DNA of 64,000 nt from Desulfatiglandaceae bacterium (GTDB taxonomy: Bacteria; Desulfobacterota; DSM-4660; Desulfatiglandales; Desulfatiglandaceae): the NCBI GenBank assembly GCA_046498185.1, contig JAWOBE010000179.1, positions 48,583 to 112,582 on the forward strand. The letters are read 5' to 3'. Made by a program: the position numbers and the translations under genes. Each line of letters opens with the position of its first letter. Within the stretch, counting starts at the first letter, position 1. The notes beneath the pieces were generated by a model. The model searched no databases, was not told the origin of the DNA, and saw only the letters and a list, made by a program, of their open reading frames with translations. Below are positions 4,182 to 48,077 of this stretch, piece by piece.

Positions 4182-4940
4182 CTATTTTGACGGTAAAAAA
4201 GCATCCAGCACCTTTCCCACTGCATCGAAAGCCTCACCTCGATTGATCACCCCACCGTCAAAACCCGCATCAAAAACCATTGGATCATTCGGAATCTTTC
4301 CAAGTATATCGATGTTCATTCCGTTCAATTCTTTATCGAGTTTTTCGGCGACCTGATCGGAAGGCACCTTGTTCAATACCGCATCAACAGCCTTGCCCAT
4401 TCCGCCTGCCAGCTCTTTTATCTTTTCGGCTACACGCAAGGACTCGTAGGAAGGCTCCACCACAATAATGACCCTGTCTATTCCCTCGTCGATCCCCCTT
4501 CCGAAATGTTCCACTCCGGCCTCCATATCTACAAACGTGACCATTTCGTTACCGGAGCGGAGTTTTTTCAAAAATTCCCGGCTCAACACACCCATCGGGC
4601 AGGCACAACCTTCAAGGGACTGTAGGATCTTTCCGATACTGACCAGAGACAATCCGTCTTTTCTTTCTATATAACTGGAAGGAATATCGTCGATCTCTAT
4701 TTCAGGCTGTTCAAAAATACTGGGCTGCTGCATATTTTTCTTAAGCGCGGATTTTCCTCCGACCATCTCCATTAAGGGGATCGGGGGCTTCTCAAAACCC
4801 AGCATCCTGAAAAGGCCGGAATTTGACTCATCTGAATCCACAACAAGAACTTTGAATCCGCGCTGTCGGGTCAAATTGGCAAGTAGTGTTACAACTGTGC
4901 TTTTTCCGCTTCCGCCTTTTCCACAAACTGATATTTTCAT
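4182..4940 (-). CDS. cooC: CooC-type P-loop NTPase (Ni-insertion / CODH maturation factor family)
   Basis: Has the deviant Walker A motif CGKGGSGKST and the CooC-type CxC motif (EGCACPMG). AGAGG RBS. Confidence 0.8.
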   Translation of the reverse strand: MKISVCGKGGSGKSTVVTLLANLTRQRGFKVLVVDSDESNSGLFRMLGFEKPPIPLMEMVGGKSALKKNMQQPSIFEQPEIEIDDIPSSYIERKDGLSLVSIGKILQSLEGCACPMGVLSREFLKKLRSGNEMVTFVDMEAGVEHFGRGIDEGIDRVIIVVEPSYESLRVAEKIKELAGGMGKAVDAVLNKVPSDQVAEKLDKELNGMNIDILGKIPNDPMVFDAGFDGGVINRGEAFDAVGKVLDAFLPSK

Positions 4941-4991
4941 AATTTAACCTCTGCTCATCTGGAAAATACCTTCTCCGTTCAGGTTCATATA

Positions 4992-5016
4992 TTGCGCCGC
5001 ATTTCCCGCGGCGCAA
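4992..5016 (-). other. Perfect 9-bp stem-loop (TTGCGCCGC-N7-GCGGCGCAA) between the ferredoxin and cooC genes
   Basis: Read directly from the sequence. There is no clear U-tract, so this is more likely an intercistronic stabiliser or attenuator than a strong terminator. Confidence 0.4.
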
Positions 5017-5040
5017 GGACAGCGGAAACTGCAGCGGATT

Positions 5041-5229
5041 TCATACCTCGGTGACGGTGATTGCATCATGTTCACAAACCTCTACACAGCTTTCACAACC
5101 AATGCATTCCTCTGCATTGACAGGTACAGATTTTTCGTCCTGGAGTTCATAAACATCCACAGGGCAAACATCAACGCATTCGCCGCAGCCTACACATTTT
5201 TCCTCATCTACTTCCGGTTTATAACCCAT
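5041..5229 (-). CDS. 2x[4Fe-4S] ferredoxin
   Basis: 62 aa with two CxxCxxCxxxCP motifs (CVGCGECVDVCP and CIGCESCVEVCE). Confidence 0.9.
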   Translation of the reverse strand: MGYKPEVDEEKCVGCGECVDVCPVDVYELQDEKSVPVNAEECIGCESCVEVCEHDAITVTEV

Positions 5230-5347
5230 TCGATTATCTCCTTTATAACATAATTGTTAAAATTTCCACATTCTACGCCTGCATCCGCCGAGTCCGGCTC
5301 CCCGCCCCCTACAACCGCTTCTTTACTCTTTACGGGGCCATCAATTT

Positions 5348-5851
5348 TCATTTCAAATTATAATGACATTCAGGCGGGATGCATAAGACAGGCCTCTTTA
5401 TGAATCTCAGGACTTTTTCCGTCGTGCTCCCGAAAAAAATCGCCTTCATGTCATCTGAATTCCCTTTGCTTCCCATTATGATCATATCTACGTCGTTCTC
5501 AACCGCCTTTTTGTTGATCTCGATACAAGGTGCACCTTCGCAGACAATCATTACCACGTCTTTTTCGTCAATCCCTTCGCTGAGGATAAAATCTTTGAGT
5601 CTTTTTTTTGAATTGATGAACACCTTCTTTTTAATATCACCACTCGTGCCTAAATTTTGTTGCACACAATGCTTGATAAAGTCCTGGTCTATAACATGTA
5701 GCGCCAGGATTTTCCCCCCGTTCACATCGATCCAGGATTTCCCCCGCCTTAAAGCCAGCCTCGAACAATGGGAGAAATCGATGGCCACCAACACACCTTT
5801 GCGTGTTGTATCCATGTGTCCGGCAGATCGCGGCTTTCGGTTCATTATCAT
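5348..5851 (-). CDS. Universal stress protein (UspA family)
   Basis: Shows the VLVAIDFS...MIIMGSKGNS...FFGSTTEKVLRFIKRPVLCI pattern. The true start may be the internal MDTTRKG (5815). Confidence 0.8.
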   Translation of the reverse strand: MIMNRKPRSAGHMDTTRKGVLVAIDFSHCSRLALRRGKSWIDVNGGKILALHVIDQDFIKHCVQQNLGTSGDIKKKVFINSKKRLKDFILSEGIDEKDVVMIVCEGAPCIEINKKAVENDVDMIIMGSKGNSDDMKAIFFGSTTEKVLRFIKRPVLCIPPECHYNLK

Positions 5852-5865
5852 GCACCCGGTTTATT

Positions 5866-6159
5866 TTAGACTTTTCGCAGCCTGACAGCTCCCCTGGGAC
5901 ACTGCTCGACACATCTCCTGCAACCGATGCATCGTTTTTCATCCACTACAGCGATGTCTCCTACCACAATGGCACTTACAGGGCACACTCTTTCGCAAAG
6001 CCCGCAGCCTATGCACGATTCAGAGTCAACAACCGCAATGTACCCCGGCCTTCCAACGTGCCCCTGGATTTCACGGATGCGCCCCTCAAGCAGATCGAGA
6101 CGTGCGCCGATCTCTTGTGCCCTGGCCTTCAGTAGATCCATTTCCGCTCTGGAATTCAT
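5866..6159 (-). CDS. Small 2x[4Fe-4S] ferredoxin with an N-terminal coiled-coil (DUF5320-like) segment
   Basis: Contains [12 protein letters not shown] and [12 protein letters not shown]. Its ATGA start overlaps the stop of the upstream NifX-like gene. Confidence 0.75.
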
Positions 6160-6518
6160 AAGATATCCGCTGCGCCTCCCCCCGCTTCACACCCCGGCAT
6201 TCGGAGGTCTTTTCTATAAACATCTCCTGCCAAAAAAGCCTCAAGCACTTCTTCGACAGGCCCTGCGACGAATGGCACAATTCTTATTCTACGCGCTTCG
6301 ATCAGACTTGCAAAAAAATCCGATATTCCTCCGCAGATCAAAATGTTGACGCCAAGTTCAGCAAGCCTTGCCACGCGTGAAAAAGCCAGCCCTTTCTCGA
6401 TCGGCTCGAAATGTTTCCTGACTTTACCGCTTTTTTCAATATCCGCAATAAGCAGCATGCCCGCGGAATCGAAAAGGGGCGATATACGGTTTTCCCAGAC
6501 AGTCAAAGCCACCTTCAT
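6156..6518 (-). CDS. NifB/NifX-family (dinitrogenase Fe-Mo cofactor-binding fold) protein
   Basis: 120 aa reading [28 protein letters not shown]...[11 protein letters not shown], typical of the NifX/NafY-like domain. Confidence 0.7.
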
Positions 6519-6695: not shown

Positions 6696-8096
6696 CTATT
6701 CTTTAACTGTCGCCCTATATCGTCCGTCCTTTTCAGGGAGCTTTATCCCAAGCCTGTTGATTTTTCGATACAGGGTACTCTTATGAATTCCTAACTCACG
6801 GCTGGTGGCAAACCGATTGTAGCGATTGCGTTTCAGGGCATCCAGAATCACACGGGCTTCAGCTGTTTGCAGTGCGGTTGTTATGTTTGTTTCTGCAGGC
6901 CGCGAAGAAACAGCCGTGGAAAGATAATCCGGTAGACAGCGAACCTCAATACGGCCTTCGGGGCACAGCACGAAAGCATGTTCGATGATATTCTCGAGTT
7001 CCCTGATATTTCCGGGATAATTATGGAACATCAACAGCGAAACAGCTTCCTGGCTTATTCCTTCAACGGCTGTGCCTCGCAGCCGATTCAACTTATCTAT
7101 AAAATATTTGACCAGCATCGGAATATCTTCCTTCCGTTTACGCAATGGAGGAAGATCCAGGCACACTACATTTATTCGATAAAAAAGATCCTGCCTGAAC
7201 CCTCCGGTTTTCACAAGTTCAGAAAGGTCTTTGTTTGTAGCGGCAATTATTCGCACATCGGCTTCAACGGACACTGTCCCTCCGAGAGGCTGATATGTCT
7301 TTTCTTGAAGTACTCTCAATAGACGTGCCTGAAAAGCCCCACTCAGGTCACCGATTTCGTCGAGCAGAATAGTACCCCCTTCGGCAAGTGCGAAATGCCC
7401 GGGTTTATCCTTAGCGGCATCCGTGAAGGCCCCGGCCTTATATCCGAAAAGTTCAGATTCCAGCAATGTGTCCGGTAGCGCTCCACAATTGATAGCGACA
7501 AAAGGCTTATCGCGTCTCCGGCTCAGGTCGTGAATCGCCCTGGACATAAGTTCTTTGCCTGTTCCTGTTTCACCCTGAACCAAAACCGTGCTGTCGCTTC
7601 CCGCCACCTGCGGCAGAATACGAAAGATCCCGGCCATTGAAGAACTTCTGCTGACCATGTCTCCCAGTTGGTAGCGCCCTTCCAATTCTTTTCGCAATTC
7701 TTCAAGCTGGCTTATGTCCCGGAATGTTTCAACCCCGCCCAGCACCTTTCCCTTCTCATCTTTAAGCAATGAGGTGCATACCGTCACCGGAATCCGGCGC
7801 TTTCGGCTATCCACGATATACGTAGAAGTGTCCACCAAAGTTCTGCCTAGTTTCATCGTGCGCCGAAGCGCACAATCCGATTCGCACATATTAGAACGAA
7901 AAACCTCCCAACAGTGTTTACCCAGTGCCTTTTCCCGAGCAATTCCAGTAATTTTCTCCGCTGCGCCGTTGAATGAAGTCACGCGCCACTCATGATCCAC
8001 GGTGAAAACCCCGTCTGATATACTTTCAAGGATTATTTCCGTTACATGCGAAGGAATTCTATATCGATTGTTTCCCAGGTTCATCAATTTCATCAC
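6696..8096 (-). CDS. Sigma-54-dependent transcriptional activator (PAS - AAA+ - HTH; no receiver domain)
   Basis: Has a PAS-like N-terminus containing HCWEVFRSNMCESDC. AAA+ motifs are GETGTGKEL, GAFTDA (the GAFTGA loop) and ESELFGY. The C-terminus carries the HTH STLYRKINRLGI. Confidence 0.9.
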   Translation of the reverse strand: MMKLMNLGNNRYRIPSHVTEIILESISDGVFTVDHEWRVTSFNGAAEKITGIAREKALGKHCWEVFRSNMCESDCALRRTMKLGRTLVDTSTYIVDSRKRRIPVTVCTSLLKDEKGKVLGGVETFRDISQLEELRKELEGRYQLGDMVSRSSSMAGIFRILPQVAGSDSTVLVQGETGTGKELMSRAIHDLSRRRDKPFVAINCGALPDTLLESELFGYKAGAFTDAAKDKPGHFALAEGGTILLDEIGDLSGAFQARLLRVLQEKTYQPLGGTVSVEADVRIIAATNKDLSELVKTGGFRQDLFYRINVVCLDLPPLRKRKEDIPMLVKYFIDKLNRLRGTAVEGISQEAVSLLMFHNYPGNIRELENIIEHAFVLCPEGRIEVRCLPDYLSTAVSSRPAETNITTALQTAEARVILDALKRNRYNRFATSRELGIHKSTLYRKINRLGIKLPEKDGRYRATVKE

Positions 8097-8534: not shown

Positions 8535-8550
8535 TGGCATCAAGGTTGCA
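8535..8550 (+). promoter_or_regulatory. Sigma-54 (-24/-12) promoter candidate for the Hdr-like selenoprotein operon
   Basis: TGGCAT-CAAGG-TTGCA is a near-consensus match to TGGCAC-N5-TTGCW. It lies about 110 nt upstream of the RBS-supported ATG at 8660. Confidence 0.65.
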
Positions 8551-8659
8551 TTGTTAAAGTATACCCAATGACCCGGGGATGGCTTTGGGTCGAAACGACC
8601 GAGCCGCGAATCTCGTTGCGGAGGTTTTAATAGTGATCACTGCCTTCGGAGGAACAGCC

Positions 8660-9967
8660 ATGATACTTGAAAGAAAAACCAGCCGAACTGAAAGTAGAGG
8701 TATGGCGGGCTTGAATGTCATTGAGAAGCAGTGTGTCTGGATGAAAGCCGGTATCATCAACTTTCGAATTTGTGAAAAGAACTATGACTGCTTCCATTGT
8801 CCCTTCGATAGAGCCATGAGGGTCGCCATGGAGGCCCAGAATCCCCTGACCGGCACCAAACGGCCGCCCTCGTGGGCCCAAAAAATGCGAAAGACGTATT
8901 CCGGCGCTGAAAAGCCCTGCGTATATTATTTGAACGGCCGGGTCGGCCCTCCCGGAACCTGTCCCCGTGATTACCACTGTGAGGACTGCCCACTGGAAAT
9001 CGAACTCGGCTATAAGTCCGTGCAAAGGTCCATCGAGGCGGCCCGGTACTCTGCAGAATTGGATAAATCACATCGGGTAACCGGGTTTCAGGTCGTCGAA
9101 AATGAATGCGTATGGATGAAAGCCGGTATCGTGAGCTTCCGCCTCTGTGATAATAACTACGATTGCTACAATTGTGAATTCGACCGCAGCATGCGTCACG
9201 CAATGGAAGAAAAAAAAACCGCAGAAGTCCAGTCTTCTGAAGAAACGGCCGGGACACCGAAAATTGGTGTTGCGGCTCATCCATGCATTTACCACCTGAG
9301 TGGAAAAAGCGACGCACCGATAGAATGCAGCAGGGCCTATGAGTGTTATCGTTGCCCGGTTCACAGAACTTTGTCGAAAGGCATCGAAGTTAAGCCGGCA
9401 CCGATGAAACGGCCCGCTTATAAGACAGTGTCCGGCTTCGAAGTGGCCGACGGTTACTATTACCATTTCGGGCATACATGGGTTCACGTCATACATGGGG
9501 AATGCGTCCGGGTTGGGTTAGACGAATTTGTTGACAAAATTTTCGGCGCCCCGGACATCCTGGATCTTCCTCTGCCCGGCGCCCTTATCAAGCAGGCAAA
9601 GATCGGCTGTGTGCTGATGCGGGATGACCAGCGTGCGCCTGTTCTCTCGCCGCTTACAGGCAGGGTGTTGGCCGTGAACGACAAAGCCGTAAGAAAACCT
9701 GAAATTGTTCATGAAGATCCGTATCACGAGGGCTGGCTGTTTCAATTGGAACCTTCTTTCTTAAAACTTGAGACGCAGGGTCTTTATACGGGTCAACATA
9801 CTTTCGAATGGATGGAAAGAGAAAACCAACTGCTTCTTAAATTGCTCGGGCCATCCTATGAAAAATTGGCTGCAACCGGAGGAAAAATCGTTCCGGATCT
9901 TATCGGGGGTCTTCCCGAAATAGGCTGGGATGCACTGGTTGCGACCTTTTTGAGAACCAAAGCGTGA
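8660..9967 (+). CDS. Uncharacterised 16-Cys protein (four Cx12-13Cx5Cx2C motifs) with a C-terminal GcvH-like domain lacking the lipoyl-lysine
   Basis: I chose the start at ATG 8660 (GGAGGA 6 nt upstream) because the track start at 8579 sits too close to the promoter. The C-terminal half aligns gaplessly to GcvH (YYYHFGHTW...PLTGRVLAVN...DPYHEGWLFQLE). Confidence 0.8.
   Translation: MILERKTSRTESRGMAGLNVIEKQCVWMKAGIINFRICEKNYDCFHCPFDRAMRVAMEAQNPLTGTKRPPSWAQKMRKTYSGAEKPCVYYLNGRVGPPGTCPRDYHCEDCPLEIELGYKSVQRSIEAARYSAELDKSHRVTGFQVVENECVWMKAGIVSFRLCDNNYDCYNCEFDRSMRHAMEEKKTAEVQSSEETAGTPKIGVAAHPCIYHLSGKSDAPIECSRAYECYRCPVHRTLSKGIEVKPAPMKRPAYKTVSGFEVADGYYYHFGHTWVHVIHGECVRVGLDEFVDKIFGAPDILDLPLPGALIKQAKIGCVLMRDDQRAPVLSPLTGRVLAVNDKAVRKPEIVHEDPYHEGWLFQLEPSFLKLETQGLYTGQHTFEWMERENQLLLKLLGPSYEKLAATGGKIVPDLIGGLPEIGWDALVATFLRTKA
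8732..9355 (+). repeat. Intragenic tandem duplication: two about 85-aa 8-Cys modules with a 375-nt period
   Basis: CVWMKAGIINFRICEKNYDCFHC (starting at 8732) matches CVWMKAGIVSFRLCDNNYDCYNC (starting at 9107). The two copies share the exact 18-mer TGGATGAAAGCCGGTATC. Confidence 0.85.
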
Positions 9968-9991: not shown

Positions 9992-12900
9992 ATGAGTGAT
10001 CAAACCCTCGGATCGGTGATGGTTATCGGCGGTGGTATTTCCGGCATTCAGGCTTCGCTGGATCTTGCCGAGTCGGGTTATTATGTCCACCTTGTGGAAA
10101 AACAACCTGCGATCGGCGGTGTCATGAGTGCGCTCGACAAGACATTCCCCACCAATGAATGTGCGATGTGAATACTTTCACCTAAACTGGTCGAGGTCGG
10201 CCGGCATTTGAACATCGAGTTGCATACCCTTACCCAAGTAGAAAGCCTGGAGGGCGAAGCAGGAGCATTTACCGCAACGCTGCGGGAAAAACCCCGTTAT
10301 GTGGATGTCGACAAATGCATCGCTTGCGGACTGTGTGCTGAAAAGTGCCCTAAAAAGGTGGATGACGTTTTCAATGAGCACCTGAACAAACGAAAAGCCA
10401 TTTATGTGGAATATCCACAGGCAGTTCCACTCAAATATGCGATCGATGCTGAAAACTGCATCTATTTTCAAAAAGGCAAATGCCGGGCATGTGAAAAATT
10501 CTGTCCGGCCGGGGCCATTGATTTCACCCAGCGTGAACGCACGTTTACACTGGATGTGGGTTCGGTGGTGCTCTCATCGGGCGCAGAGCCTGCAGATCCA
10601 TCCAGCCTCGTTTTTTACGGCCACGGCCGATTTCCAAATGTAATCACAGCCATGCAGATGGAACGAATACTTAACGCAACCGGTCCTTACCAGGGGAGGC
10701 TCATCCGTCCCTCCGACGGTAGGGAGCCGGAGCGCATCGCATGGATACAATGCGTCGGTTCCCGGGATACGCATACCCCGGGGTCTACCGGTTATTGCTC
10801 CGGCGTTTGCTGCATGTATGCGGTGAAGGAAGCCACAATCGCCAAAGAGCATGCCGGCAAAAACCTTGATGCGGCCATTTTCTTCATGGACATGCGGACC
10901 CACGGCAAAGGTTTTGAGCGCTATTATCGACGGGCTGAAGATGACCTGGGAGTCCGCTTCATCCGCTCCCGCGTACATTCCGTCGTTCCCGCGGCCGATG
11001 GGTCGGATGACCTCAAAGTCGGCTACGTGGATGAAGCGGGCAATGCCATGGAAGAGCAGTTCCAGATGGTGGTTCTTTCTCACGGTCTCAAAGCCCCCCG
11101 GGAGATGCAGGCTTTAGCGGAAAGGCTTGATATCTCGATGAACACCGATGGTTTCATAGAAACCAGCAGCCTTAAACCGGTCGAAACATCGAGGCATGGG
11201 GTTTTTGTATGCGGCTGCGGCGCCAATCCAGTCGATATCCCCCAATCTGTGATGGAAGCATCCGCGGCCGCTTCGGCGTCCGCATCCCTTCTGTCCAAAT
11301 CCAGGAACACCTTGACTCGTCACAAGGAATATCCTCCTGAAACAAGTATCCAACCTGAAAAGATGCGAATAGGCGTTTTTGTCTGTCATTGCGGAATAAA
11401 CATCGGTGGCGTCGTCGATGTACCTGCGGTTCGGGACTACGCCCGTGAACTGCCGGGCGTCGTTTATGCCGGCGACAACCTTTTTTCCTGCAGCCAGGAC
11501 ACCCAACAGGCGATTCGCGATGCCATAGCAGAGCACAATTTGAATCGGGTGGTGATTGCGGCATGTACTCCCAGGACCCACGAACCGCTGTTTCAAGAAA
11601 CCATACGCGAAGCAGGTTTAAATCCATATCTGCTTGAATTCGCGAACATACGCGATCAAGACTCATGGGTTCACCAATCCCAACCCGAGGAAGCCACAAT
11701 AAAGGCTATGGATTTGGTCCGGATGGCGGTATCCAAGGTAGCGCTGTCGGAACCCGTCGATCGGTTGAAGCTGCCGGTCAATCCTTCGGCCCTTGTTGTC
11801 GGCGGGGGTCTTGCAGGCATGACAGCAGCGGTCCAGCTTGCTGACCAGGGCTTCCAGGTGTACATAATCGAAAAGACAGGCGTCCTGGGCGGGAATGCGA
11901 CCAGCATCAAAACCACCTGGGACGGAGGAGATGTCCAGGGCTACATGAAGGACCTGACAAAACGGATTGAAACGAACTCTCTCATAGAAGTCTTGCTGAA
12001 AAGCCGGATCGAATCTGTTTCAGGGTTCATCGGAAACTTTAAAACGGTTGTAAACACCGGTCAAGACCAACGCGAAGTCAGCCATGGTGCCGTCATCCTG
12101 GCAACGGGCGGAGATTATTACAGGCCTGAAGAATATCTCTATGCTACCGACGACAAGGTGACCTGTTGGCATGAGCTGGAAGATCTTTTTGAAAGGGAGC
12201 CCGAGCGGCTGGAAGACGCAGAATCCGTGGCATTTATACAGTGTGTGGGTTCCCGGGAACCGGATCGCCAGTACTGCTCACGCATCTGTTGCACATCTTC
12301 GCTTTTGCAGGCGATAGACTTAAAAACAAAAAAACCTCAACTGGACGTCTATATTCTGTACCGGGACATAAGAAGCTACGGACTCAGAGAGGAGCTCTAC
12401 CGGAAAGCGAGAGAAATCGGCGTGACGTTTTTCCGGTACACCCTCGATGAAAAGCCCCGGGTGGAAACGGGGGACAACGGCCGGCTTACAATTACCGTAA
12501 AGGACCATGTCCTGGGCTCTCCGGTAAGTTTTCAAGTAGATTATTTAAATCTTTTCACTGCGTTGGTTCCGCAGGGGGAAAATGAAATATCGAGGCTTTT
12601 CAAGGTACCGGTCAACGAAGACGGCTTCCTGCTCGAAGCTCATATGAAACTCAGGCCTGTTGATTTCTCGACTGATGGTGTTTTCCTATGCGGACTTGCG
12701 CATTACCCAAAACCGATCGAAGAATCCATCGCACAGGCGCAGGCTGCAGCCGCCCGTGCCGCCGGGGTGCTCACTCGGAAATTCATCGAGGTTGAACCTA
12801 TCGTCTCGGTCATTGATCAGGAAAAATGCATCGGGTGTGGTTTCTGCGAGGCTTCTTGTCCCTACGGGGCTGCACAGCTCGTCAAAGTGGAAGGCAAGGG

Positions 12901-13648
12901 ATTCAGAGCCGAAAGCAACCCGGCGCTTTGCAAAGGATGCGGAATTTGTGCCGCCGGTTGTCCCCAAAAGGCCATCGATATGCTTCATTTCCGCGACAGC
13001 CAGATTCTGGCTGCTGTCGAAGCAGGGGCGGAAAAGGTGCAGAGGATGAAAAAAACGGAGCTCGAAGTTCGAAAAAAATACAGCACATCGGGATCCGGCT
13101 ACCTGGTTGCCGACGATTACTATTATCATTCCGGACACACATGGGCGAAGCCCATCAAAGGCGGCCGCGTCCTGATCGGGGTGGATGATTTTGCGGGAAA
13201 AATTCTTGGAAAAGCCGACCGGCTGAACCTTCCGGAACCCGGAACCGTCTTGAAGCAGGATCGGCCGGGATGGTCTTTAAACCGTTCGGGCCGCCGGGCC
13301 GCCTTTCTTGCACCGGTAAGCGGACGGGTCTTCGCGGTCAACGAAAAGGTGGTAGCGAACCCTGAAATATTACTAAAAGACCCGTATGGTAAAGGATGGC
13401 TGCTCGTGCTCGAGCCTTCGCTTGTGAAGCCCAAAGAGATTGAAGCCCTTTACAGCGGAGATCAAAGCTTCCGATGGATCGAGAAAGAATTCCAGGCATT
13501 GCTGGATCTCATGGGGCCTCAACATGAACGGCTGGCCTCGACCGGAGGCGGTCCTATTGAAGACCTGTTCGACAAGTTCCCTGAAATTGGTTGGAAAAAG
13601 CTGGTTGGAACATTCTTAAAAACGACGGATGACCGGCCGGCCGATTAA
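9992..13648 (+). CDS. hdrA: Giant HdrA-like selenoprotein (two FAD/TrxR-like units, ferredoxin inserts, C-terminal GcvH-like module); Sec codon at 10169-10171
   Basis: The track splits this gene into 9977-10171 and 10208-13648, which share one frame. Read-through gives ...[24 protein letters not shown]..., the conserved HdrA Cys/Sec position. Other motifs are VIGGGISG and VVGGGLAGM (FAD), [17 protein letters not shown]...YCS..CC (twice) and several CxxCxxCxxxCP. AGGAG lies 7 nt before ATG 9992. Confidence 0.9.
10187..10204 (+). promoter_or_regulatory. Putative bacterial SECIS hairpin for hdrA-1
   Basis: Stem-loop CUGGUC-GAGGUC-GGCCGG starts 16 nt after the UGA. The apical loop contains GGUC. 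Confidence 0.6.
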
Positions 13649-13674: not shown

Positions 13675-14427
13675 ATGACGGAAAAATTCAAACCACGAAT
13701 CCTGGCGTTTCTCTGCAATTGGTGCGCCTATGCAGGTGCAGACCTTGCCGGCGTTTCAAGGATACAATATCCGCCCACGATACGGGTGATACGGGTGATG
13801 TGCTCCGGCCGGGTCGATCCTGCTTTCATCGTCAATGGTCTTGCAAAGGGTTTTGACGGCGTGATGGTATCCGGGTGACACATCGGTGAGTGTCATTACC
13901 TGGATGGTAATGTTCATGCGGAAAAGGAAATGGAGATCGTTCGGTTCCTGTTGGACCTCTCCGGCATAGGTTCCGATCGTTTATTCATGCGGTGGGTCAG
14001 CGCCTCGGAAGGCGCCCAGTTCGCCGCCTACGTAAAGGAATTCAGCGAAACGGTGGAAAGACTCGGGCCGTTCATGCCTGGCGACTTTGAAATCCCACTG
14101 GCTGCTCTTGAAAGCACATTACATGCTCCGCGTTTGCGGTGGCTGACCGGAATGGAGATTAAAATTACCGAACAAGGCAATGTCTACCAGGAAAAAATTG
14201 ATAAGTCCGACTACCGGGACACCCTTGAAAGTGCAGCCCGCGAAGAATACGAAAAGGCCCTTGTGTTGGAATCGCTTCGCAGGGAGCACACCAGCGTCCG
14301 GGAAATCGCCATCGAAACGGGTATGCCCGTTTATACGGTCTCATGTCGACTTAATGAACTCGAAAGAGCCAGACTGGTGGAGTTGAAAACCTACCGGGGG
14401 AGCACCCCGGAATTCAGAGGAGCGTAG
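13675..14427 (+). CDS. mvhD: MvhD/FlpD-like selenoprotein fused to a C-terminal winged-helix-like domain; Sec codon at 13876-13878
   Basis: The track splits this gene into 13675-13878 and 13930-14427, which share one frame. Read-through gives ...GFDGVMVSG-U-HIGECHYLDGN..., which matches the GCHxGDCHY motif of MvhD. The N-terminus reads ILAFLCNWCAYAGADLAG. The C-terminal tail is VREIAIETGMPVYTVSCRLNELERARLVE. Confidence 0.85.
13894..13912 (+). promoter_or_regulatory. Putative bacterial SECIS hairpin for mvhD
   Basis: Perfect 7-bp stem CAUUACC-UGGAU-GGUAAUG starts 16 nt after the UGA. Confidence 0.6.
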
Positions 14428-14475: not shown

Positions 14476-17400
14476 ATGGATATAGCAGAGAAAAAAAATG
14501 ACAGAATAGGTTCGGTTATTGTGGTTGGAGCCGGGATTTCCGGCATGCAGTCGGCGCTCGATCTGGCAGGCTCCGGTTTTTATGTTTACCTGGTGGACAG
14601 CTCTCCCAGCATCGGTGGGATGATGGCGCAGCTGGACAAAACCTTCCCGACAAACGACTGTGCGATGTGAATCATCTCACCCAAGCTGGTCGAGGTCGGC
14701 CGCCATACAAATATAGAGGTGATCACCAATTCGGAAATCGACAAGCTGGAAGGAGAACAGGGCAACTTTCAGGTTACGCTTAAAAACAACCCGAGATTTA
14801 TAGATCCGACGGCATGCACGGGTTGTGGGCTCTGCAGCCAAGCCTGCCCGGTGACCGCAATCAATGAATTCGACTGCCGCCTTTCTCAAAGGTCGGCCGC
14901 TTTCATCCCCTATGCTCAAGCAGTACCGTTGGCCTACAGCATCGACCGCAAACGATGCATCGGCTGCGGTCTCTGTGAAAAAATCTGTCTGGCTGGCGCG
15001 GTCCAATACGACGACGCCCCGCGGGAAACACAGCTGAATGTCGGAGCGGTCGTCCTCGCCACCGGGAACCGGACCTTCGACCCGTCTGATCTCGACACCT
15101 ACAGATACAATGAGTGTCCGAATGTCATAACAAGCCTGGAGTTCGAGCGGATTCTCAATGCCTCCGGCCCCTATATGGGGCACCTGATGCGACCTTACGA
15201 CCGTGAGGAACCGCGCAAAATAGCCTGGATACAGTGCGTGGGTTCGAGAAGTCTCCAAAACGGGGCCAAGCCTTACTGTTCCTCGGTTTGCTGCATGTAC
15301 GCGGTGAAGGAGGCCGTGATCGCCAAGGAACATGCACATGGAGATCTCGACACCGCGGTGTTCTTTATGGACATGCGAACCTATGGAAAAGAATTCGAAC
15401 AGTACTATGAACGCGCCTCGCTCAAACACGGTGTGCGATTCATTCGTTCCCGCGTACACAGCGTGGACCCCGTCGGCGATGGGGACTTGAAAATTTCTTA
15501 TATCGAAGAAAACGGCGGAATTAAAAGCGAAACCTTCGATCTTGTCGTGCTATCGACGGGACTGGAAGTTTCACAGGTATCGGTGGATCTCGCAAACAAA
15601 CTCGGAGTGGATCTGAACGAAAATCGGTTCGCAAAAACCGACAGTTTCAAGCCGGTCGCCACGTCGGTCCCTGGCATTTATGTCTGTGGTGCCCTTCAGG
15701 GCCCTAAAGACATCCCTCAGTCTGTGACCGAGGCTTCCGCCGCCGCCGCCCTTTCCGGGGCGCTTTTGAGCGAGAGCCGCTGGAGCAAGTGTCGGGAAAT
15801 TGAATTGCCGGAAGAATCCAACGTGAAAGGAGAACCGCCGAGAATCGGCGTTTTCGTATGCCATTGCGGAATTAATATCAGCGGTGTTGTGGATGTCCCG
15901 GCCGTCCGCGACTATGCTCGGAGTCTCCCGTATGTGGTTTATGTCGAGGACAATCTGTACACCTGCTCTCAAGACACACAGATCAAAATGGCTGAGGTTA
16001 TACGCGAGCAGGGCATCAACCGCGTTGTCGTTGCCGCCTGTACACCCAAAACCCATGAACCCCTTTTTCAGGAAACCCTTCAAAATGCGGGGTTAAATAA
16101 ATATTTGTTCGAAATGGCCAACATCCGCAATCAGGATTCCTGGGTTCACAACAGGAACCCCCATTCCGCCACGGAAAAAGCCAAGGACCTGGTTCGAATG
16201 GCGGTCGCCAAGGCGGGGTTTCTCGAATCCCTTCCGGAAACAGAGCTTTCGTTGAACCCCGTCACGCTCATCATAGGCGGAGGGGTTGCCGGCCTTACGG
16301 CGGCTGAGAATCTGGCCGACCAGGGCTATAAAGTTCATCTGGTCGAGCGATCCGCCGAGTTGGGAGGACAGGCCAACTTTTTGTACAAAACCTGGAAGGG
16401 AGAAGACATAAAGGCCGGGCTCGATCGACTCATAGCCAGAGCAAAAAACCACCCGAATATAACGGCACATCTGGAAACGGAAGTCGTCCACGTCGATGGA
16501 TTTATAGGTAACTTTTCTTCGGTGCTGCGCAAAGCCGACGGCCACGAAAACACCCTCGAACATGGGGTCGCGATCATCGCGACAGGAGGAGAAGAATATA
16601 AACCCGATGAGTATCTTTACGGCAGCAACCCCGCGGTGGTAACCCACCTGGAGCTTGATCGACGATTCTCAACCGATGATCCGTCGATAACGGAACTTGG
16701 CAGCGCAGTCTTCATCCAGTGCGTGGGCTCCCGGCAGCCGGATCGCCCCTATTGCAGCAGGGTTTGCTGCACTCACACGGTAGAAAGTGCTCTTGAGCTG
16801 AAACGTCGAAACCCGGAGATCGAAGTTTACGTGCTCTACCGTGATATGCGGACTTATGGAGAACGGGAGGAATTATACAACCGCGCACGGGAACAGGGTG
16901 TCATATTTATCCGCTACGACCTGGAAAATAAGCCGGTATTCACGGAAAACGACGGAAGTCTCCAGGTCGAGGTGCACGATCCGATTCTTGGTTCAAAGAT
17001 CCTTCTCAGGCCGGATCTCGTCACCCTTGCCACAGCGGTTGTTCCTTCAGGTGGAAATGATTTGGCGAGCCTCTTCAAAATCAGCAAAGACGGAAGCGGT
17101 TTCTTCACAGAAGCACACGCAAAACTGAGGCCGGTCGATTTCGCCACAGACGGAGTCTTTCTCTGCGGACTGGCCCATTATCCCAAATCTCTGGATGAAA
17201 GCGTCGAACAGGCTCTTGCCGCAGCCGGGAGAGCTTCAGCTTGCCTGGCGGCTGCCAAGGTGATGGTGGGTGGTTCTGTGGCCGAAGTCAATCCGGCATT
17301 TTGCAGTCGATGCGGCATGTGCGTCGAGATCTGCCCTTTTGGAGCCGCCGGCTTTACAGAAGAAGGTTATGCGGCGATAAACGCCGCCCTGTGCAAAGGT

Positions 17401-17493
17401 TGTGGCCTTTGCACGGCATCCTGTAGAAGTGGCGCACTCACTCTCAAATGTTGCGATGATTCCCAGATAATGGCTATGATCGACCAGATGTGA
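14476..17493 (+). CDS. hdrA: Giant HdrA-like selenoprotein paralog (same tandem architecture, no GcvH-like module); Sec codon at 14668-14670
   Basis: The track splits this gene into 14476-14670 and 14719-17493, which share one frame. Read-through gives ...[24 protein letters not shown].... The protein is collinear with hdrA-1 up to the C-terminal ferredoxin domain. Confidence 0.9.
14686..14703 (+). promoter_or_regulatory. Putative bacterial SECIS hairpin for hdrA-2
   Basis: UGGUC-GAGGUC-GGCCG has the same position and loop as the hdrA-1 hairpin. The 17-mer CTGGTCGAGGTCGGCCG is identical between the two paralogs. Confidence 0.6.
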
Positions 17494-17692: not shown

Positions 17693-19234
17693 ATGCCAGA
17701 GACTTTAAAACTGAACCTGGCTATCGTCGGTGGAGGCAAAACATGTCGCTACTTTTTGGAGCTCCTCCAGAAGAAAAACTATTTCCCGTATCTTTCGATC
17801 ACGATTTTTGGCGTATGTGATATTAACCCGGATGCCGAGGGCCTGCGCCTGGCCCGGGATCTCGGTATCACCACAACCAACGATTATCGCAGCATAATCA
17901 ACCTACCGAACTTGCACGGCGTCATAGAATTGACCAATGACCGCACGGTGCTTATGGACCTGATACGCCTTAGACCAAAAGGTGTCTGGGTCCTGGAACA
18001 TAACATCGGGCGTATGCTTCAAAGGCTGTTTCTCCTGGACGAGAAATTAAAAGCGAAGGATGATGAAGTCGCTCTCGAGCGCATGATTTCAGATATTCTG
18101 CTTCACCGGAGCAATGACCGCATCGTGTTGCTGGATCCCGATTTTCGAATTCTCGACGCCAATGATGGCTACCTTAAAGCGGTGTCTAAAAGTCGGGAAG
18201 AGGCTTTAGGAAAACCCTGCTACAATATTGTCTACGGATTCAATCTCCCCTGCCCCGAACTGCGACCAAGCATGAAATGCCCCATGCTGGAAACTCTGAG
18301 AACCGGCGACAGCACAAAAGTGATTCATGAAATCGTCGACGAGACAGGAGAACGGAACTATTGGAGCCTGGAAACCCATCCGGTGAAAGACCGGTCCGGC
18401 GAGGTGGTGAGGGTGATCGAAATCCGCAGGGACATCCCGGAAGAACTCCCCTCTCTATGGGAAAAACGCCTGCAGGAAGTCAAAACCGATCTGGGAAAAG
18501 TCGTTCAGGAAGACCGAATGCTTTCCCTGGGAAAACTTTCCGCCAGTTGTGCTCATGAAATCAACAACCCAATCCAGGGTCTCCTTACTTTTTCTCACCT
18601 GATAAAATCGATGCTCGATGAAGGAAAACCCACTGAAGAGGACCTGCAAAATTTCAAGGAGTTCATCGCATTGATGTGCAGTGAGCTGGAGCGTTGCGGG
18701 GATATAACATCCGGCTTGCTTTCCTTCGCCAGACAATCCCTGATGGCCGCGGCTGAAGTCGATTTGAACGAAGCACTTCGATCGGTCATAACCCTCGCAC
18801 GGCACCATATGGAACTACAGAATATCCGGCTCGAAATGAACCTATATCATGGAATGCTTACTATCAGAGGAGATATCAACCACTTGCAGCAATGCTTTTT
18901 GAACCTTGTCTTTAATGCGATAGAGGCAATGCCCGATGGGGGTAAATTAATTGTCACAACCGGTCTGGATGAAAAAAAACATCGTGCATCGATAATGATA
19001 AAAGACACTGGAACCGGAATCGACAAAGCAATAATCGACAGGATATTCGATCCCTTCTACACCACCAAATCACAGGGGAAAGGCACTGGACTGGGCCTGT
19101 CGATCGTTTACGGTATCGTCAAGGGCCATAAAGGGCTGATCAACATCGAAAGCGAAAAGGGTGAAGGCTCGGTGGTGACGGTGACATTTCCGGTGCTTTA
19201 CACCACCGGGAGTTCAGGAGACAACAATGAATGA
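17693..19234 (+). CDS. Cytoplasmic sensor histidine kinase (Rossmann-like N-domain - Cys-containing PAS - HisKA - HATPase)
   Basis: No transmembrane segments are evident. The N-terminus reads LAIVGGGKTCRYFLELL. The PAS domain contains GKPCYNIVYGFNLPCPELRPSMKCP. The H-box is SASCAHEINNP, and the ATPase G-boxes are DTGTGI and GTGLGLS. Confidence 0.85.
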   Translation: MPETLKLNLAIVGGGKTCRYFLELLQKKNYFPYLSITIFGVCDINPDAEGLRLARDLGITTTNDYRSIINLPNLHGVIELTNDRTVLMDLIRLRPKGVWVLEHNIGRMLQRLFLLDEKLKAKDDEVALERMISDILLHRSNDRIVLLDPDFRILDANDGYLKAVSKSREEALGKPCYNIVYGFNLPCPELRPSMKCPMLETLRTGDSTKVIHEIVDETGERNYWSLETHPVKDRSGEVVRVIEIRRDIPEELPSLWEKRLQEVKTDLGKVVQEDRMLSLGKLSASCAHEINNPIQGLLTFSHLIKSMLDEGKPTEEDLQNFKEFIALMCSELERCGDITSGLLSFARQSLMAAAEVDLNEALRSVITLARHHMELQNIRLEMNLYHGMLTIRGDINHLQQCFLNLVFNAIEAMPDGGKLIVTTGLDEKKHRASIMIKDTGTGIDKAIIDRIFDPFYTTKSQGKGTGLGLSIVYGIVKGHKGLINIESEKGEGSVVTVTFPVLYTTGSSGDNNE

Positions 19235-20573
19235 AAAATTCAGGCTCATGGTAGTGGACGACGAAAAAATCGTTCGGGAGTCACTTTACCACTGGTTCAA
19301 AAAGTCCGGCCACGTCGTAGAAACGGCGGCATCCGGTTTCGAGGCCCTCGAAAAACTTGAAAAAACACCCTTTGATCTGCTGTTCGTGGATATAAAGATG
19401 CCGATGATGAACGGTCTCGAACTGCTGGGAAAAGTAAAGGAAGAATACCCGGATACAATCGTCGTTATAATTACGGCCTACGGATCAATCGACAATGCTG
19501 TGCAGGCGATGAAAATGGGTGCCAGCGACTACCTGCTGAAACCTTTCAAACCGGACCAGATGTCGCTCCTGCTGGAAAAACTCGCCAATCAGAAACGCCT
19601 TGCCGAGAACTACCGTTATGTCAAAGGGGTTCTTGACGAACTCATCCGTTTCGACAATATCATTGGCCGGTCAAAACCGATGCAGCAGATATTCAATATC
19701 ATTCCCGAAGTGGCACAGTCAGATTCCGCCGTGCTCATCACCGGAGAAACCGGCACCGGAAAAGAACTGGTCGCCAAGGCCATTCATGCGAAAAGTCCTC
19801 GGGCTCACGGACCGTTTATCGCTATCAACTGCGGAGCAATGCCGGAAACATTGCTCGAAACCGAGTTGTTCGGTCACCGGAAAGGGGCTTTCACCGGTGC
19901 GAATCAAAACAGGAAAGGCTTCCTGGAAGTCGTGTCCGGCGGAACGCTCTTTCTGGATGAAATTGGCGAAATAAGCCCCAAAATGCAAGTAGACCTTCTG
20001 CGCGTGCTGGAAGAAAAGGAAGTCATCCGGGTAGGAGACAGGGAGCCGATCACCGTGGACTTCCGACTGGTTTCCTCGACATGCAGAAAACTTGATGAGG
20101 AGGTGAAAGCCGGCAATTTCCGTGAAGATTTCTTTTACCGGATAAACGTTATCACAATCCCCATCCCGCCGCTCCGTGAAAGAAAAGAGGACATCCCCCT
20201 GCTGGTCGAGCATTTCTTGAACAAATACAGCCATGAAACCACCAAAAAGGTGGACAAAACCACGGCCGAAGCCTTGGCCTTTCTAAAGAGTTATGATTGG
20301 CCGGGTAATGTCAGGGAGCTCGAGAATGCTATTGAACGTGCAGTTGTACTTTCCAAGTCCAGGACCCTCGGTGTAGATTCTTTTTCTTTTCTGCAGCCTG
20401 CTAGAACCGGATACAAAACCCGCCGCACACTTCGCGAGATGGAAAAAGATTATATAGAAGAAACCCTGGAACACCAGAACTGGAACGTGACCCGCTCCGC
20501 TGAAATCCTTGGTATCAACCGGGTCACGCTTCACAAGATGATCAAAAGGTATAACATTGAACGAACCCGGTAA
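19227..20573 (+). CDS. NtrC-family sigma-54-dependent response regulator (REC - AAA+ - HTH)
   Basis: The receiver domain shows DLLFVDIKMP. AAA+ motifs are GETGTGKEL, GAFTGA and ETELFGH. The C-terminus carries the HTH AEILGINRVTLHKMIK. It overlaps the kinase gene by 8 nt. Confidence 0.9.
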   Translation: MNEKFRLMVVDDEKIVRESLYHWFKKSGHVVETAASGFEALEKLEKTPFDLLFVDIKMPMMNGLELLGKVKEEYPDTIVVIITAYGSIDNAVQAMKMGASDYLLKPFKPDQMSLLLEKLANQKRLAENYRYVKGVLDELIRFDNIIGRSKPMQQIFNIIPEVAQSDSAVLITGETGTGKELVAKAIHAKSPRAHGPFIAINCGAMPETLLETELFGHRKGAFTGANQNRKGFLEVVSGGTLFLDEIGEISPKMQVDLLRVLEEKEVIRVGDREPITVDFRLVSSTCRKLDEEVKAGNFREDFFYRINVITIPIPPLRERKEDIPLLVEHFLNKYSHETTKKVDKTTAEALAFLKSYDWPGNVRELENAIERAVVLSKSRTLGVDSFSFLQPARTGYKTRRTLREMEKDYIEETLEHQNWNVTRSAEILGINRVTLHKMIKRYNIERTR

Positions 20574-20594: not shown

Positions 20595-21152
20595 ATGTCG
20601 GGCATAAAGGCTCGTGTGGGGATCATGGCATTCGGCTCGCCGCCGGCGGAAGTTCTCCGGTCTATCGCGGAAGCTGTTCCGGTTCATTTCGGTATGCCGG
20701 TGGAAATCCTTCCCCCGGTCAAAACTCCATCCTATGCATTCGACCCTGCGAGAATTCAATATAACGCTGTATCGATCATCGAAAATATCGAAGCGATGAA
20801 ATTTCCTCCGGACCTAAAGATCCTTGGAGTTTTGACCGTGGATCTTTTCCTTCCGGTTTTCACTCATGTTTTCGGGGAAGCCCGGCAAGGGGGAAACTGC
20901 GCTTTGGTTTCGCTGCACCGGCTTGGTCACGACGCCGGGAGTTCCCTTACATCCCCCGCATCCATCAGTAAAAGGACCACAAAGGTGGCCCTTCATGAAC
21001 TCGGCCACCTCTTTAACATAGTCCATTGTTTCGACCGCTGCTGCCTGATGCATTTCTCAATGGATCTTGATGAGCTGGACTGTATACCGGTTGAATTCTG
21101 CCGCTACTGCAAAGCTTTTTTGGATGAGTCAATCAAGCAGTTTCGCAAATGA
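20595..21152 (+). CDS. Archaemetzincin-like zinc metallopeptidase (M54)
   Basis: Contains the HELGHLFNIVHC...CCLMH motif (HExxHxxGxxH plus a Cys cluster). Confidence 0.7.
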   Translation: MSGIKARVGIMAFGSPPAEVLRSIAEAVPVHFGMPVEILPPVKTPSYAFDPARIQYNAVSIIENIEAMKFPPDLKILGVLTVDLFLPVFTHVFGEARQGGNCALVSLHRLGHDAGSSLTSPASISKRTTKVALHELGHLFNIVHCFDRCCLMHFSMDLDELDCIPVEFCRYCKAFLDESIKQFRK

Positions 21153-41276: not shown

Positions 41277-41353
41277 TGGGGTGAGTGAAGGGACTCGAAC
41301 CCTCGGCATCTGGGGCCACAACCCAGTGCTCTACCAACTGAGCTACACCCACC
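41277..41353 (-). tRNA. tRNA-His (anticodon GTG), CCA-encoded
   Basis: The reverse complement is GGTGGGTGTAGCTCAGTTGGTAGAGCACTGGGTTGTGGCCCCAGATGCCGAGGGTTCGAGTCCCTTCACTCACCCCA. It folds as a cloverleaf. It has the extra 5' G(-1) typical of tRNA-His and an anticodon loop TTGTGGC. Confidence 0.9.
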
Positions 41354-41434
41354 ATATGCAGATATTGATAACACATTTTCAGGATTTTGCAACAATCTTT
41401 ATATATCCCCTCTAATGCTATCTACGGGTTTCAG

Positions 41435-42856
41435 ATGATTTCGAACAAACAACTGATGTTTAGGAAAATTCCGGCCGTCGATAAACTCCTGTCTTCACAC
41501 CGTATTATCGAAGCTTCCAGGAAATTGCCCAGGCGGCTGCTGCATGAATCGCTCGACGAAATTTTATCCGAACTGCGAACCGCCATTCGAACGGAAGACG
41601 ACTTCGATCCGGCTCGTATCGATCCGGAAGCGATAACGGCCGCAGCCGCAGCCAGGGCGGAAGCCCGGGCGGAAGCAAGCCTGCAGCCGGTCGTCAACGC
41701 GACCGGAGTGGTGATACACACCAATCTGGGGAGATCACTGCTTTCGGAAAAAATCCTGGATAAATTCAAAGAGGTGGCGGCTCACTACACCAATCTCGAG
41801 TATAACCTCGACACCGGTAGGCGGGGCAGCAGGTATGTCCATGTCGAGGGCATACTGAAAGAATTGACCGGAGCCGAAGCCGCACTGGTAGTCAACAACA
41901 ACGCCGCTGCGGTTTTCATAGCGCTCGAGACACTTGCCAAGGGCCGGCAGGTGCTGGTTTCAAGGGGACAGCTGATCGAGATAGGTGGATCATTCCGGAT
42001 CCCCGACGTTATGGCCAGAAGCGGCGCGGTGATGGTGGAAGTTGGCACCACCAACAAAACACATCTCAAAGATTATCAGGACGCGATCAATGCGGAGACC
42101 GCCCTGCTGCTTAAAGTTCATACGAGCAACTTTAAAGTTGTTGGCTTCACTGAGGAAGTGCCTCTATCCGAACTGGTAAAACTCGGGAAACAACACGACG
42201 TCCCGGTGATGGAAGACCTGGGAAGCGGCTGCCTGGTGGATTTGACCGCATACGGACTCTTAAAAGAACCCCCGGTCACTGAAGTCATCGCCCAAGGGGC
42301 CGACGTGGTCACCTTCAGTGGCGACAAGCTGCTCGGAGGTCCTCAGGCCGGTATCATTCTTGGCAAAAAAGACATCCTGGATCGCATCAAAAAAAATCCG
42401 ATAAACAGGGCGGTTCGAATTGACAAACTCACGCTGGTCGCTCTCGAAGAAACTCTCCGCCTCTATAGAGACGAACCCTCGGCAGTCAGAGAAATCCCGA
42501 CATTAAAGATGCTTTTCGAACCTTACAGCGCGCTTGCCGAAAAAGCCTTAAAATTGACCGAATCGATTGGTGAAATTCCGACGGATAATTTCAAGCTCTC
42601 CCTTGTAGACGGGATGTCAAAACCAGGAGGTGGCTCTCTTCCTCAGGTCGAGCTTCCCAGCAGACTTATCTGTCTTGAGCCCAAGGCGATGTCCGCAACC
42701 GATATTGAAACCCGCCTCAGGGCAAATAATCCGCCTGTAATTTCCCGGGTCGAAAAAGATCACGTGCTGCTCGATGTACGCACACTCCAACATTCAGATG
42801 CGGCCATCATCATAAAAGCCGTCCGCAGACTTGCAAACGAGAATCACCCGCGATGA
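41435..42856 (+). CDS. selA: L-seryl-tRNA(Sec) selenium transferase
   Basis: Contains IPAVDKLL, VVNATGVVIHTNLGRS and FSGDKLLGGPQAGIILGKK (PLP-lysine region). The start could be ATG 41435 or 41456. Confidence 0.9.
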   Translation: MISNKQLMFRKIPAVDKLLSSHRIIEASRKLPRRLLHESLDEILSELRTAIRTEDDFDPARIDPEAITAAAAARAEARAEASLQPVVNATGVVIHTNLGRSLLSEKILDKFKEVAAHYTNLEYNLDTGRRGSRYVHVEGILKELTGAEAALVVNNNAAAVFIALETLAKGRQVLVSRGQLIEIGGSFRIPDVMARSGAVMVEVGTTNKTHLKDYQDAINAETALLLKVHTSNFKVVGFTEEVPLSELVKLGKQHDVPVMEDLGSGCLVDLTAYGLLKEPPVTEVIAQGADVVTFSGDKLLGGPQAGIILGKKDILDRIKKNPINRAVRIDKLTLVALEETLRLYRDEPSAVREIPTLKMLFEPYSALAEKALKLTESIGEIPTDNFKLSLVDGMSKPGGGSLPQVELPSRLICLEPKAMSATDIETRLRANNPPVISRVEKDHVLLDVRTLQHSDAAIIIKAVRRLANENHPR

Positions 42857-47983: not shown

Positions 47984-48077
47984 CACTTTGTAGCTAAATA
48001 GTAGCCACTCTATTTTGTCAACCATTCCCCGATTTGTATTGCCCCTGAGAGCCCTAACCAGCAAAGGAGGCCTCTTG

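Follow-up and report, generated by a model that had tools for sequence, protein, structure and literature searches.

The subject of this report is an operon in a window of 64,000 nucleotides (the whole stretch of DNA that was analysed; contig JAWOBE010000179.1 of a Desulfatiglandaceae bacterium), which encodes two GcvH-like modules lacking the lipoyl-lysine of glycine cleavage H-proteins. One module is located at the end of a Cys-rich protein, designated protein 1 here, and the other one is fused to the C-terminus of HdrA-1. Both have an H-protein fold, which is followed by a helical tail, and both are members of a large conserved family; the name GcvHl is used in the following for lysine-less modules of this type (family profile A2). 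Tentatively, and with some reservation, we favour the reading that GcvHl is an unmodified interaction module, which would pair the Cys-rich protein with a complex of HdrA1, MvhD and HdrA2.

Two lysine-less GcvH-like modules, one fused to HdrA-1

Pfam GCV_H (PF01597; gathering score 22.2) matched module 1 with 53.1 bits (E 3.8e-14, residues 294–411) and module 2 with 66.2 bits (E 3.3e-18, residues 972–1088). Comparison of the two modules with each other yielded 52% identity over 177 residues (E 1e-65), including about 65 residues beyond the GcvH domain. The GcvH-fold core of module 1 extends over 9419..9754 (plus strand), with a hairpin tip D322-D323 at 9623–9628, and is followed by a family-specific C-terminal helical extension at 9755..9958 (...LAATGG...PEIGWDALVATFL). 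The corresponding parts of module 2, also on the plus strand, are the core at 13079..13417, with the hairpin tip S70-G71, and the extension at 13421..13621, which consists of a long helix (127–153), a GG loop and helices at 163–179. The extension alone produced no match in Pfam.

An AlphaFold model of module 2, computed from 133 family sequences, reached a predicted local distance difference test score (pLDDT) of 94.2 and a predicted template modelling score (pTM) of 0.89. Foldseek superimposed this model on solved H-proteins (1onl, 3ab9, 1htp) with target-normalised template modelling (TM) scores of 0.89–0.93 and root mean square deviations of 1.4–2.0 Å over about 127 columns. The query-normalised TM score was about 0.6, as the C-terminal tail has no counterpart in the PDB; no PDB chain was found by Foldseek for the extension of module 2. 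The Pfam matches, the fold and the paralogy of the modules bear out a first-pass annotation, made from the letters of the window, which had proposed a GcvH-like module at two places in the operon.

When the modules were aligned by MAFFT with three solved H-proteins and a lysine-bearing relative (P0019), the position of the lipoyl-lysine was occupied by D323 in module 1 (9626–9628) and by G71 in module 2 (13289–13291), with 'MRDD' and 'NRSG', respectively, standing opposite 'ESVK'. The phmmer alignment with the pea H-protein (1dxm) was ungapped and paired the lipoyl-lysine with G71 of the HdrA-1 module; the sole gapped alignment, that with the Thermus protein (1onl), put an arginine at this position. 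In the model of module 2 the hairpin strands comprise residues 63–69 and 72–77, with S70-G71 at the tip, and in the AlphaFold model of protein 1 residues 315–321 and 324–329, with D322-D323 at the tip; no lysine was found in the hairpin of either modelled module. Thus, Asp and Gly in the lysine column, read originally from a gapless comparison with E. coli GcvH, were recovered in the MAFFT alignment and the models. Since the lipoyl-lysine is absent from both hairpins, canonical lipoylation is not expected, as had also been proposed. A gapped placement of a nearby lysine at the hairpin tip, for example one from 'IKQAKIG' in module 1, was considered and rejected: the shift seen with the Thermus protein supplies an arginine, and the models put K311 and K314 of this segment before the first hairpin strand, 8–11 residues from the tip. 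The nearest lysines in module 2 are K59 and K90. In the pea H-protein, the loaded lipoamide arm is presumably held by S12, E14 and D67; these residues align with G19, T21 and A75 of module 2.

GcvHl and GcvH share the core motifs H-x-W, G-x-x-D, L-P-x-x-G, P-x-x-G-x-V-x-x-V-N and DPYG-x-GW. Apart from the missing lysine, GcvHl differs from GcvH by H(T/S/A)W in place of HEW, by an extra histidine (YHxGH) and by the helical tail of 65 residues; furthermore, it is a fused or anchored module, whereas GcvH is a free protein of 130 amino acids. Cysteines are absent from module 2, and the two present in module 1 are not conserved in the family. With 48–72 bits, the modules remain below the cutoffs of the GcvH equivalogs TIGR00527 (115.85) and NF002270 (117). 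Two curated families, NF045810 'GcvH_rel_desulf' and TIGR03077 'not_gcvH', resemble GcvHl in being GcvH-related and apart from true GcvH; the window modules scored 24–48 bits against their cutoffs of 144–150 and therefore belong to neither. GcvH-L (PDB 5a35; Foldseek E 1.2e-6) is likewise a GcvH paralogue with a role outside glycine cleavage. The GcvH-L proteins of Streptococcus pyogenes and Staphylococcus aureus keep the lysine and are lipoylated (PMC12440151). Unlike GcvHl, GcvH-L lacks a C-terminal extension and fusions to redox enzymes.

HdrA-1 (9992..13648, plus strand; 1218 amino acids) carries module 2 at its C-terminus, behind a flexible linker of about 25 residues. Translation from ATG 9992 reads through an in-frame UGA at 10169–10171 (NECAM-U-ILSPK), which is the known Cys/selenocysteine (Sec) position of HdrA, and the protein contains the Pfam domains Pyr_redox_2 and Fer4 as well as the motif C-A-M-(C/U). 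The open reading frame (ORF) 10208..13648 encodes HdrA, followed by the sequence paralogous to module 1. The fusion is real; a continuous HdrA-GcvHl ORF was found in nine other genomes. NCBI calls module 2 a separate protein of 200 amino acids (MFO8090737.1, 13046–13648). Separate translation from ATG 13046 was rejected, as this codon has no properly spaced ribosome-binding site and the ORF continues from HdrA, here as well as in the nine genomes. The fusion is invisible in the public annotation because HdrA-1 carries a selenocysteine UGA. Both MFO8090737.1 and MFO8090736.1, which is protein 1, are named 'glycine cleavage system protein H', and several relatives have received the same name.

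Neither an HdrA-GcvH-like fusion nor the lysine-less family was found described in open-access papers and preprints, in agreement with the earlier impression that the fusion had not been described; a description may exist in subscription journals. Similarly, open-access papers and preprints on archaemetzincin with sigma-54, and on ImcH with glycine cleavage, contained no description of the module, and a recent survey of HdrA domain architectures does not mention GcvH.

The GcvHl family

A family profile built from 13 members was run against 1.84 billion representative proteins. At E<1e-30 it matched at least 572 clusters (50% identity), and at E<1e-10 it matched 4638; the strongest matches extended from end to end with the tail included. 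Conserved positions belong mostly to the H-protein core and its structure, in addition to W133, G156-G157, W172 and F179 of the tail; family-specific polar residues are H17 (conserved to 89%), D36 (98%) and Q60 (75%), while R69, conserved to 52% overall, does not vary within the close clade. Members of every architecture could be aligned over the full length with the two window modules, including W133, GG156-157, W172, F179 and YHxGHxW. Judged by profile and alignment, the modules are members of a large conserved family and not degenerate one-offs. The NCBIfam cutoffs for GcvH and the two curated GcvH-related families lie far above the scores of all members. In the lysine column of 168 members, Gly was found 86 times, Asp and Ser 21 times each, Glu 13 times and Lys 7 times (one of the seven being P0019); 30 of the 168 have a lysine at position +1, and no neighbouring position is a conserved lysine.

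A neighbour-joining tree placed the HdrA-fused modules in one clade and the Cys-type modules in others. The mean identity was 58% among HdrA-type modules of different genomes, compared with 48% between both types within a genome. By these measures the two module types are old paralogues, and both have therefore been kept; their long retention argues for separate roles.

The architectures of the 168 proteins were classified. In about 89, basic residues come after a hydrophobic helix at the N-terminus, and the positive-inside rule would place the module of these membrane-anchored forms in the cytoplasm. About 35 contain one or two copies of a Cys-rich unit, C-x-W-M-x-A-G-...-C-x3-Y-D-C-x2-C-x-F-D. 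Fusion to the C-terminus of HdrA is one architecture of the family, and Fer4-MvhD-Molydop_binding-GcvHl, encoded in a MetFV-Hdr cluster, is another one; one protein consists of three GcvHl modules in tandem, then a FAD-linked oxidase and an HdrD-like CCG domain. Further forms are receiver domain-GcvHl and two modules in tandem. A second type of Cys-rich N-terminus (MKCPFLEE..V.YCKA.P.RKMIP...), which has no family match, precedes the module in P0120, P0123, P0139, P0157, P0164 and P0176.

In protein 1, the Cys-rich region (8699..9418, plus strand) comprises four C-x12/13-C-x5-C-x2-C motifs with 16 cysteines and is weakly similar to a CHY zinc finger. The score with zf-CHY was 23–26 bits at a gathering score of 31.3, which amounts to a resemblance only; zf-CHY matched 4 of the 33 members with a Cys-rich region, and a Pfam iron-sulfur family none of the 33. 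The region had no sequence relative in the PDB. An AlphaFold (AF2) model of the full protein 1 showed pLDDT values of 40–80 in the Cys-rich part and a pTM of 0.50. Homologues of the Cys-rich region carry GCV_H nearly always.

Operon, selenocysteine sites and gene neighbourhoods

The operon is located on the plus strand and begins with the ORF 8579..9967, which encodes two Cys-rich repeats and then module 1. The true start of protein 1 (8660..9967, 435 amino acids; MFO8090736.1) is likely ATG 8660, which is preceded by a GGAGG ribosome-binding site, rather than the alternative upstream ATG 8579. ATG 8660 lies about 110 nucleotides 3' of a sigma-54-type promoter (TGGCATcaaggTTGCA, 8535..8550, plus strand) with one mismatch to TGGCAC-N5-TTGC, which is present ahead of the operon. 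HdrA-1 is followed by an MvhD-like protein (13675..14427; Sec UGA at 13876–13878, VSG-U-HIGECHY) with a C-terminal winged-helix domain, and by HdrA-2 (14476..17493; Sec UGA at 14668–14670), which has no GcvH-like module. The winged helix of the MvhD-like [2Fe-2S] protein was recognized by weak MarR_2/HTH_5 matches and hints at a DNA binding or docking role.

Thus three in-frame UGAs, two in the HdrA genes and one in the MvhD gene, occupy known Cys/Sec positions; gene callers split or drop such genes. The same small hairpin, CUGGUCGAGGUCGGCCG, follows the UGA after about 19 nucleotides in both HdrA genes. Folding z-scores for a selenocysteine insertion sequence downstream of the UGAs were not significant alone, and the call of selenocysteine was made because of the conserved position and the shared hairpin. 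A gene for SelA (selenocysteine synthase) at 41387–42856 is consistent with selenoprotein use; a tRNA-Sec was not found in the window, and a tRNA-His is present at 41277–41352.

Neither HdrB and HdrC nor the glycine-cleavage genes GcvT and GcvP were found in the operon. The sole ORF with a CCG domain is about 30 kb away (48015–50675; 886 amino acids, HdrB-like CCG domain). These features bear on LbpA, the lipoate-binding partner of sulfur-oxidising sHdr systems to which the modules had initially been compared, and which is likewise a GcvH-like protein genetically tied to Hdr-type genes. In LbpA, one lysine and two cysteines are conserved, the lysine strictly, and lipoylation is carried out by dedicated ligases (PMC6067878). 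The window modules, in contrast, have neither the lysine nor the conserved cysteines, and the HdrA proteins of the operon are of the selenocysteine, MvhD-associated type, without HdrBC, in an anaerobe of the Desulfatiglandaceae. The hdrC1B1A-hyp-hdrC2B2 cluster with dsrE/tusA and a lipoate ligase, by which LbpA is placed, is not the setting of this operon. The link to LbpA and sHdr was abandoned on the grounds of lysine, cysteines and gene context.

Downstream, a histidine kinase (17693–19234), a sigma-54 response regulator (19227–20573) and an archaemetzincin-like peptidase (Peptidase_M54; 20595–21152) form a trio of genes on the plus strand. The N-terminus of the kinase (17693–18100) contains a Rossmann-like segment (GGGKTC; GFO_IDH_MocA at E 0.18 only) before the PAS domain, which may be a nucleotide or redox sensor. 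Upstream of the operon and divergent from it, a gene for a PAS/sigma-54 activator is located on the minus strand (6696..8096); it is preceded at 4182–6518 (minus strand) by ORFs for a NifX/NifB-like protein of 120 amino acids, a ferredoxin-like protein of 97 amino acids, a UspA-like protein and a MinD/ParA-type P-loop ATPase, which were named by reading of the sequence alone, except for the ATPase (Pfam).

A scan with one genome per species yielded 78 loci, nearly all from Desulfobacterota, with a few from Acidobacteriota and one from Nitrospinaceae. Among the cultured carriers are Desulfocicer vacuolatum DSM 3385 (L070) and Desulfosarcina alkanivorans PL12 (L051), both with the Cys-rich form; a cultured organism with the HdrA fusion was not found. 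The complete operon (Cys-rich-GcvHl, HdrA-GcvHl, MvhD and usually a second HdrA) was detected in nine loci, two of which end or continue before the second HdrA, and in these loci the same selenocysteine positions split HdrA and MvhD. In the window and in all nine other genomes, the Cys-rich-GcvHl gene is situated directly upstream of the HdrA fusion. Two or three copies of the module were present in 20 of 86 loci, and eight further loci have a separate second GcvHl gene behind the Cys-rich-GcvHl gene.

The trio of kinase, sigma-54 regulator and archaemetzincin is found next to GcvH-like genes across the Desulfobacterota (for example in loci L070, 8647–12238, and L092). Its synteny is kept where the N-terminal domain differs and the kinase is of the Cache-HAMP type, and across the phylum border in Acidobacteriota (L085, a membrane-anchored form). 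A PAS kinase and a sigma-54 response regulator were present within 6 kb in 46 of the 78 loci, and an archaemetzincin-like peptidase in 51, often less than 130 nucleotides from the 3' end of the GcvHl gene; the peptidase gene adjoins the full-length regulator gene, where this was detected in the same locus, in all but two cases. Of 74 loci, 35 had a sigma-54 promoter motif ahead of the Cys-rich gene, compared with 0.025 expected per 480 nucleotides. Receiver-GcvHl fusions adjoin Cys-rich-GcvHl.

Genes for membrane-anchored forms are adjacent to NapC/NirT-type cytochromes. In one arrangement, a Fer4_11 protein, which has no signal peptide, and an NrfD-cytochrome fusion are encoded between two membrane-anchored GcvHl genes; in another Fer4_11-NrfD locus their place is taken by one protein with two modules in tandem, encoded behind the pair, which is a Rosetta-stone pattern. 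One Cys-rich form, a distant relative, is encoded beside DsrE, HdrB and HdrC in one locus. The locus L089 (189–12429) encodes an HdrL-like protein, MvhD (Sec-split), DUF5981, MTHFR, a split HdrA, Fer4-MvhD-Molydop_binding-GcvHl, HdrC and HdrB; this context is that of a MetFV-Hdr-type methylene-tetrahydrofolate reductase, and its GcvHl member (P0061) has a lysine in the column.

Possible functions and implications

In the favoured reading, the module would no longer be a carrier and would serve as a handle for protein-protein interactions. Module 1 on the Cys-rich protein and module 2, tethered by its linker to HdrA-1, would bind one another or a shared partner, and this binding would recruit the Cys-rich protein to the flavin and iron-sulfur complex of HdrA1, MvhD and HdrA2, which has no HdrBC of its own. 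The adjacent kinase and regulator would switch on the whole operon from the sigma-54 promoter, the regulator presumably acting at 8535–8550. Mutual binding of the modules is suggested indirectly by their co-occurrence, the tandem fusions and the separate paralogue clades; the Cys-rich protein could be either a subunit or a substrate of the HdrA complex.

The strongest single argument for modules working together is, we suggest, the pattern around Fer4_11 and NrfD, where they occur in tandem in one locus and split in the other. Independent fusions to cytoplasmic redox modules (HdrA; Fer4-MvhD-Molydop_binding; FAD oxidase-HdrD) point in the same direction, and so would the large and conserved family, the occurrence of modules in sets, the age of the paralogues and the loss of carrier features. 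The modules are fused to, or lie next to, the cytoplasmic side of redox modules of the Hdr and NrfCD types. There is precedent in RnfC and NqrA, which contain unmodified barrel-sandwich domains of the lipoyl type as structural elements: their N-terminal barrel-sandwich hybrid domains resemble GcvHl in having a lipoyl-like fold without cofactor, in a structural position within a redox complex. The three-module relative showed a weak match to RnfC_N, and Foldseek a weak match to RnfC (8rbm_C). The RnfC and NqrA domains belong, however, to another family with much weaker similarity (E about 0.07), lack the helical tail and are not known to occur in pairs or in tandem. Of the docking or carrier-mimic role suggested at first, comparative genomics favours the docking part, short of proof.

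Several points weigh against this reading. The module is present as a single copy in 66 of the 86 loci, and hetero-pairing is therefore not a general rule; the nine loci with HdrA fusions are close relatives and thus not independent observations. The Cys-rich domain, to which a putative role is given here, is poorly modelled (pLDDT 40–80, pTM 0.50). The conserved polar residues H17, D36 and Q60 (75–98%) could mark a ligand site, and the receiver fusion together with the tight synteny of the trio may fit a role in signalling as well or better.

According to the latter idea, which is the main rival, GcvHl would be an output or feedback element of the adjacent system of kinase, sigma-54 regulator and archaemetzincin and would bind the regulator, the kinase or the protease. 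Titration by membrane-anchored or enzyme-fused copies would then report the state of the redox complex to transcription, for which PspA-PspF provides an analogy. The gene neighbourhoods speak for it: kinase and regulator within 6 kb in 46 of 78 loci, archaemetzincin in 51, nearly always beside the regulator where that gene was detected and often within 130 nucleotides of GcvHl, a synteny which persists with another N-terminal domain and a Cache-HAMP kinase and in Acidobacteriota, sigma-54 promoters upstream in 35 of 74 loci, the receiver-GcvHl fusions beside Cys-rich-GcvHl and the second GcvHl gene in eight further loci; the winged-helix domain of MvhD in the operon could be added. Two-component genes, however, often adjoin the operon which they control without contact to its products, and the fusions to large catalytic proteins (HdrA, HdrD-type oxidase) and the tandem copies behind NrfCD look like enzyme subunits. 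As the principal function of GcvHl, signalling would seem rather unlikely; it is compatible with the docking model and does not exclude it.

Alternatively, the site of the old lipoyl arm may have been rebuilt (H17, H20, D36, Q60, and R69 in this clade) and may bind a ligand non-covalently, such as a small thiol, a sulfur compound, a metal or a cofactor, which would be presented to HdrA or sensed. The conservation of H17, D36 and Q60, and of R69 in the close clade, is consistent with such a site; by alignment H17 and H20 are situated in the strand which we take to border the arm-binding cleft of the H-protein, and the neighbourhood with DsrE, HdrB and HdrC in one locus would be suitable. Yet the hairpin tip itself is variable, module 2 has no cysteines, and no family match suggests a ligand, so that a carrier mimic of this kind is considered improbable.

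Covalent modification (lipoyl, octanoyl or other) at a non-canonical residue, by which the modules would become swinging-arm carriers for the Hdr complex, would accord with the flexible linker before module 2 and with the lysines of other members, in the column in 7 of 168 (including the reference P0019) and at +1 in 30. It is highly improbable, as the hairpins of both window modules are free of lysine, Gly occupies the column in 86 of the 168 members, scores of 48–72 bits contrast with the GcvH equivalog cutoffs of 116–117, and the residues presumed to hold the arm are replaced. There is next to no chance that the modules are the annotated glycine cleavage H-protein or an LbpA, to which the Pfam GCV_H match and the NCBI names might point: the identity is refuted by the missing lipoyl-lysine, the scores lie below the NCBIfam cutoffs, the neighbours are HdrA, MvhD, kinase and regulator instead of GcvT/GcvP or HdrB/HdrC (the latter adjoin one distant relative), and the conserved cysteines of LbpA are absent.

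Taken more broadly, and with considerable doubt, GcvHl may represent an undescribed docking and signalling system of anaerobes. Paired modules would wire orphan electron-bifurcating enzymes of the HdrA, MvhD and HdrD types to accessory metal-binding proteins, to membrane modules of NrfCD and cytochromes and to the circuit of kinase, sigma-54 regulator and archaemetzincin; the peptidase or receiver-GcvHl might control the assembly.

For annotation, the missing lysine means that such proteins cannot do the job of the H-protein in glycine cleavage, and metabolic reconstructions which count them towards the glycine-cleavage or the reductive-glycine pathway are wrong. Selenocysteine UGAs can, in addition, hide GcvHl fusions in public gene calls, as is the case in the record of this window. 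Many sulfate reducers, syntrophs and degraders of aromatic compounds encode orphan HdrA-MvhD modules, without assigned partners or substrates; a conserved and easily recognised handle on these enzymes is a concrete way to find the partners. The findings are relevant to anaerobic energy metabolism, to the evolution of lipoyl domains and to annotation practice.

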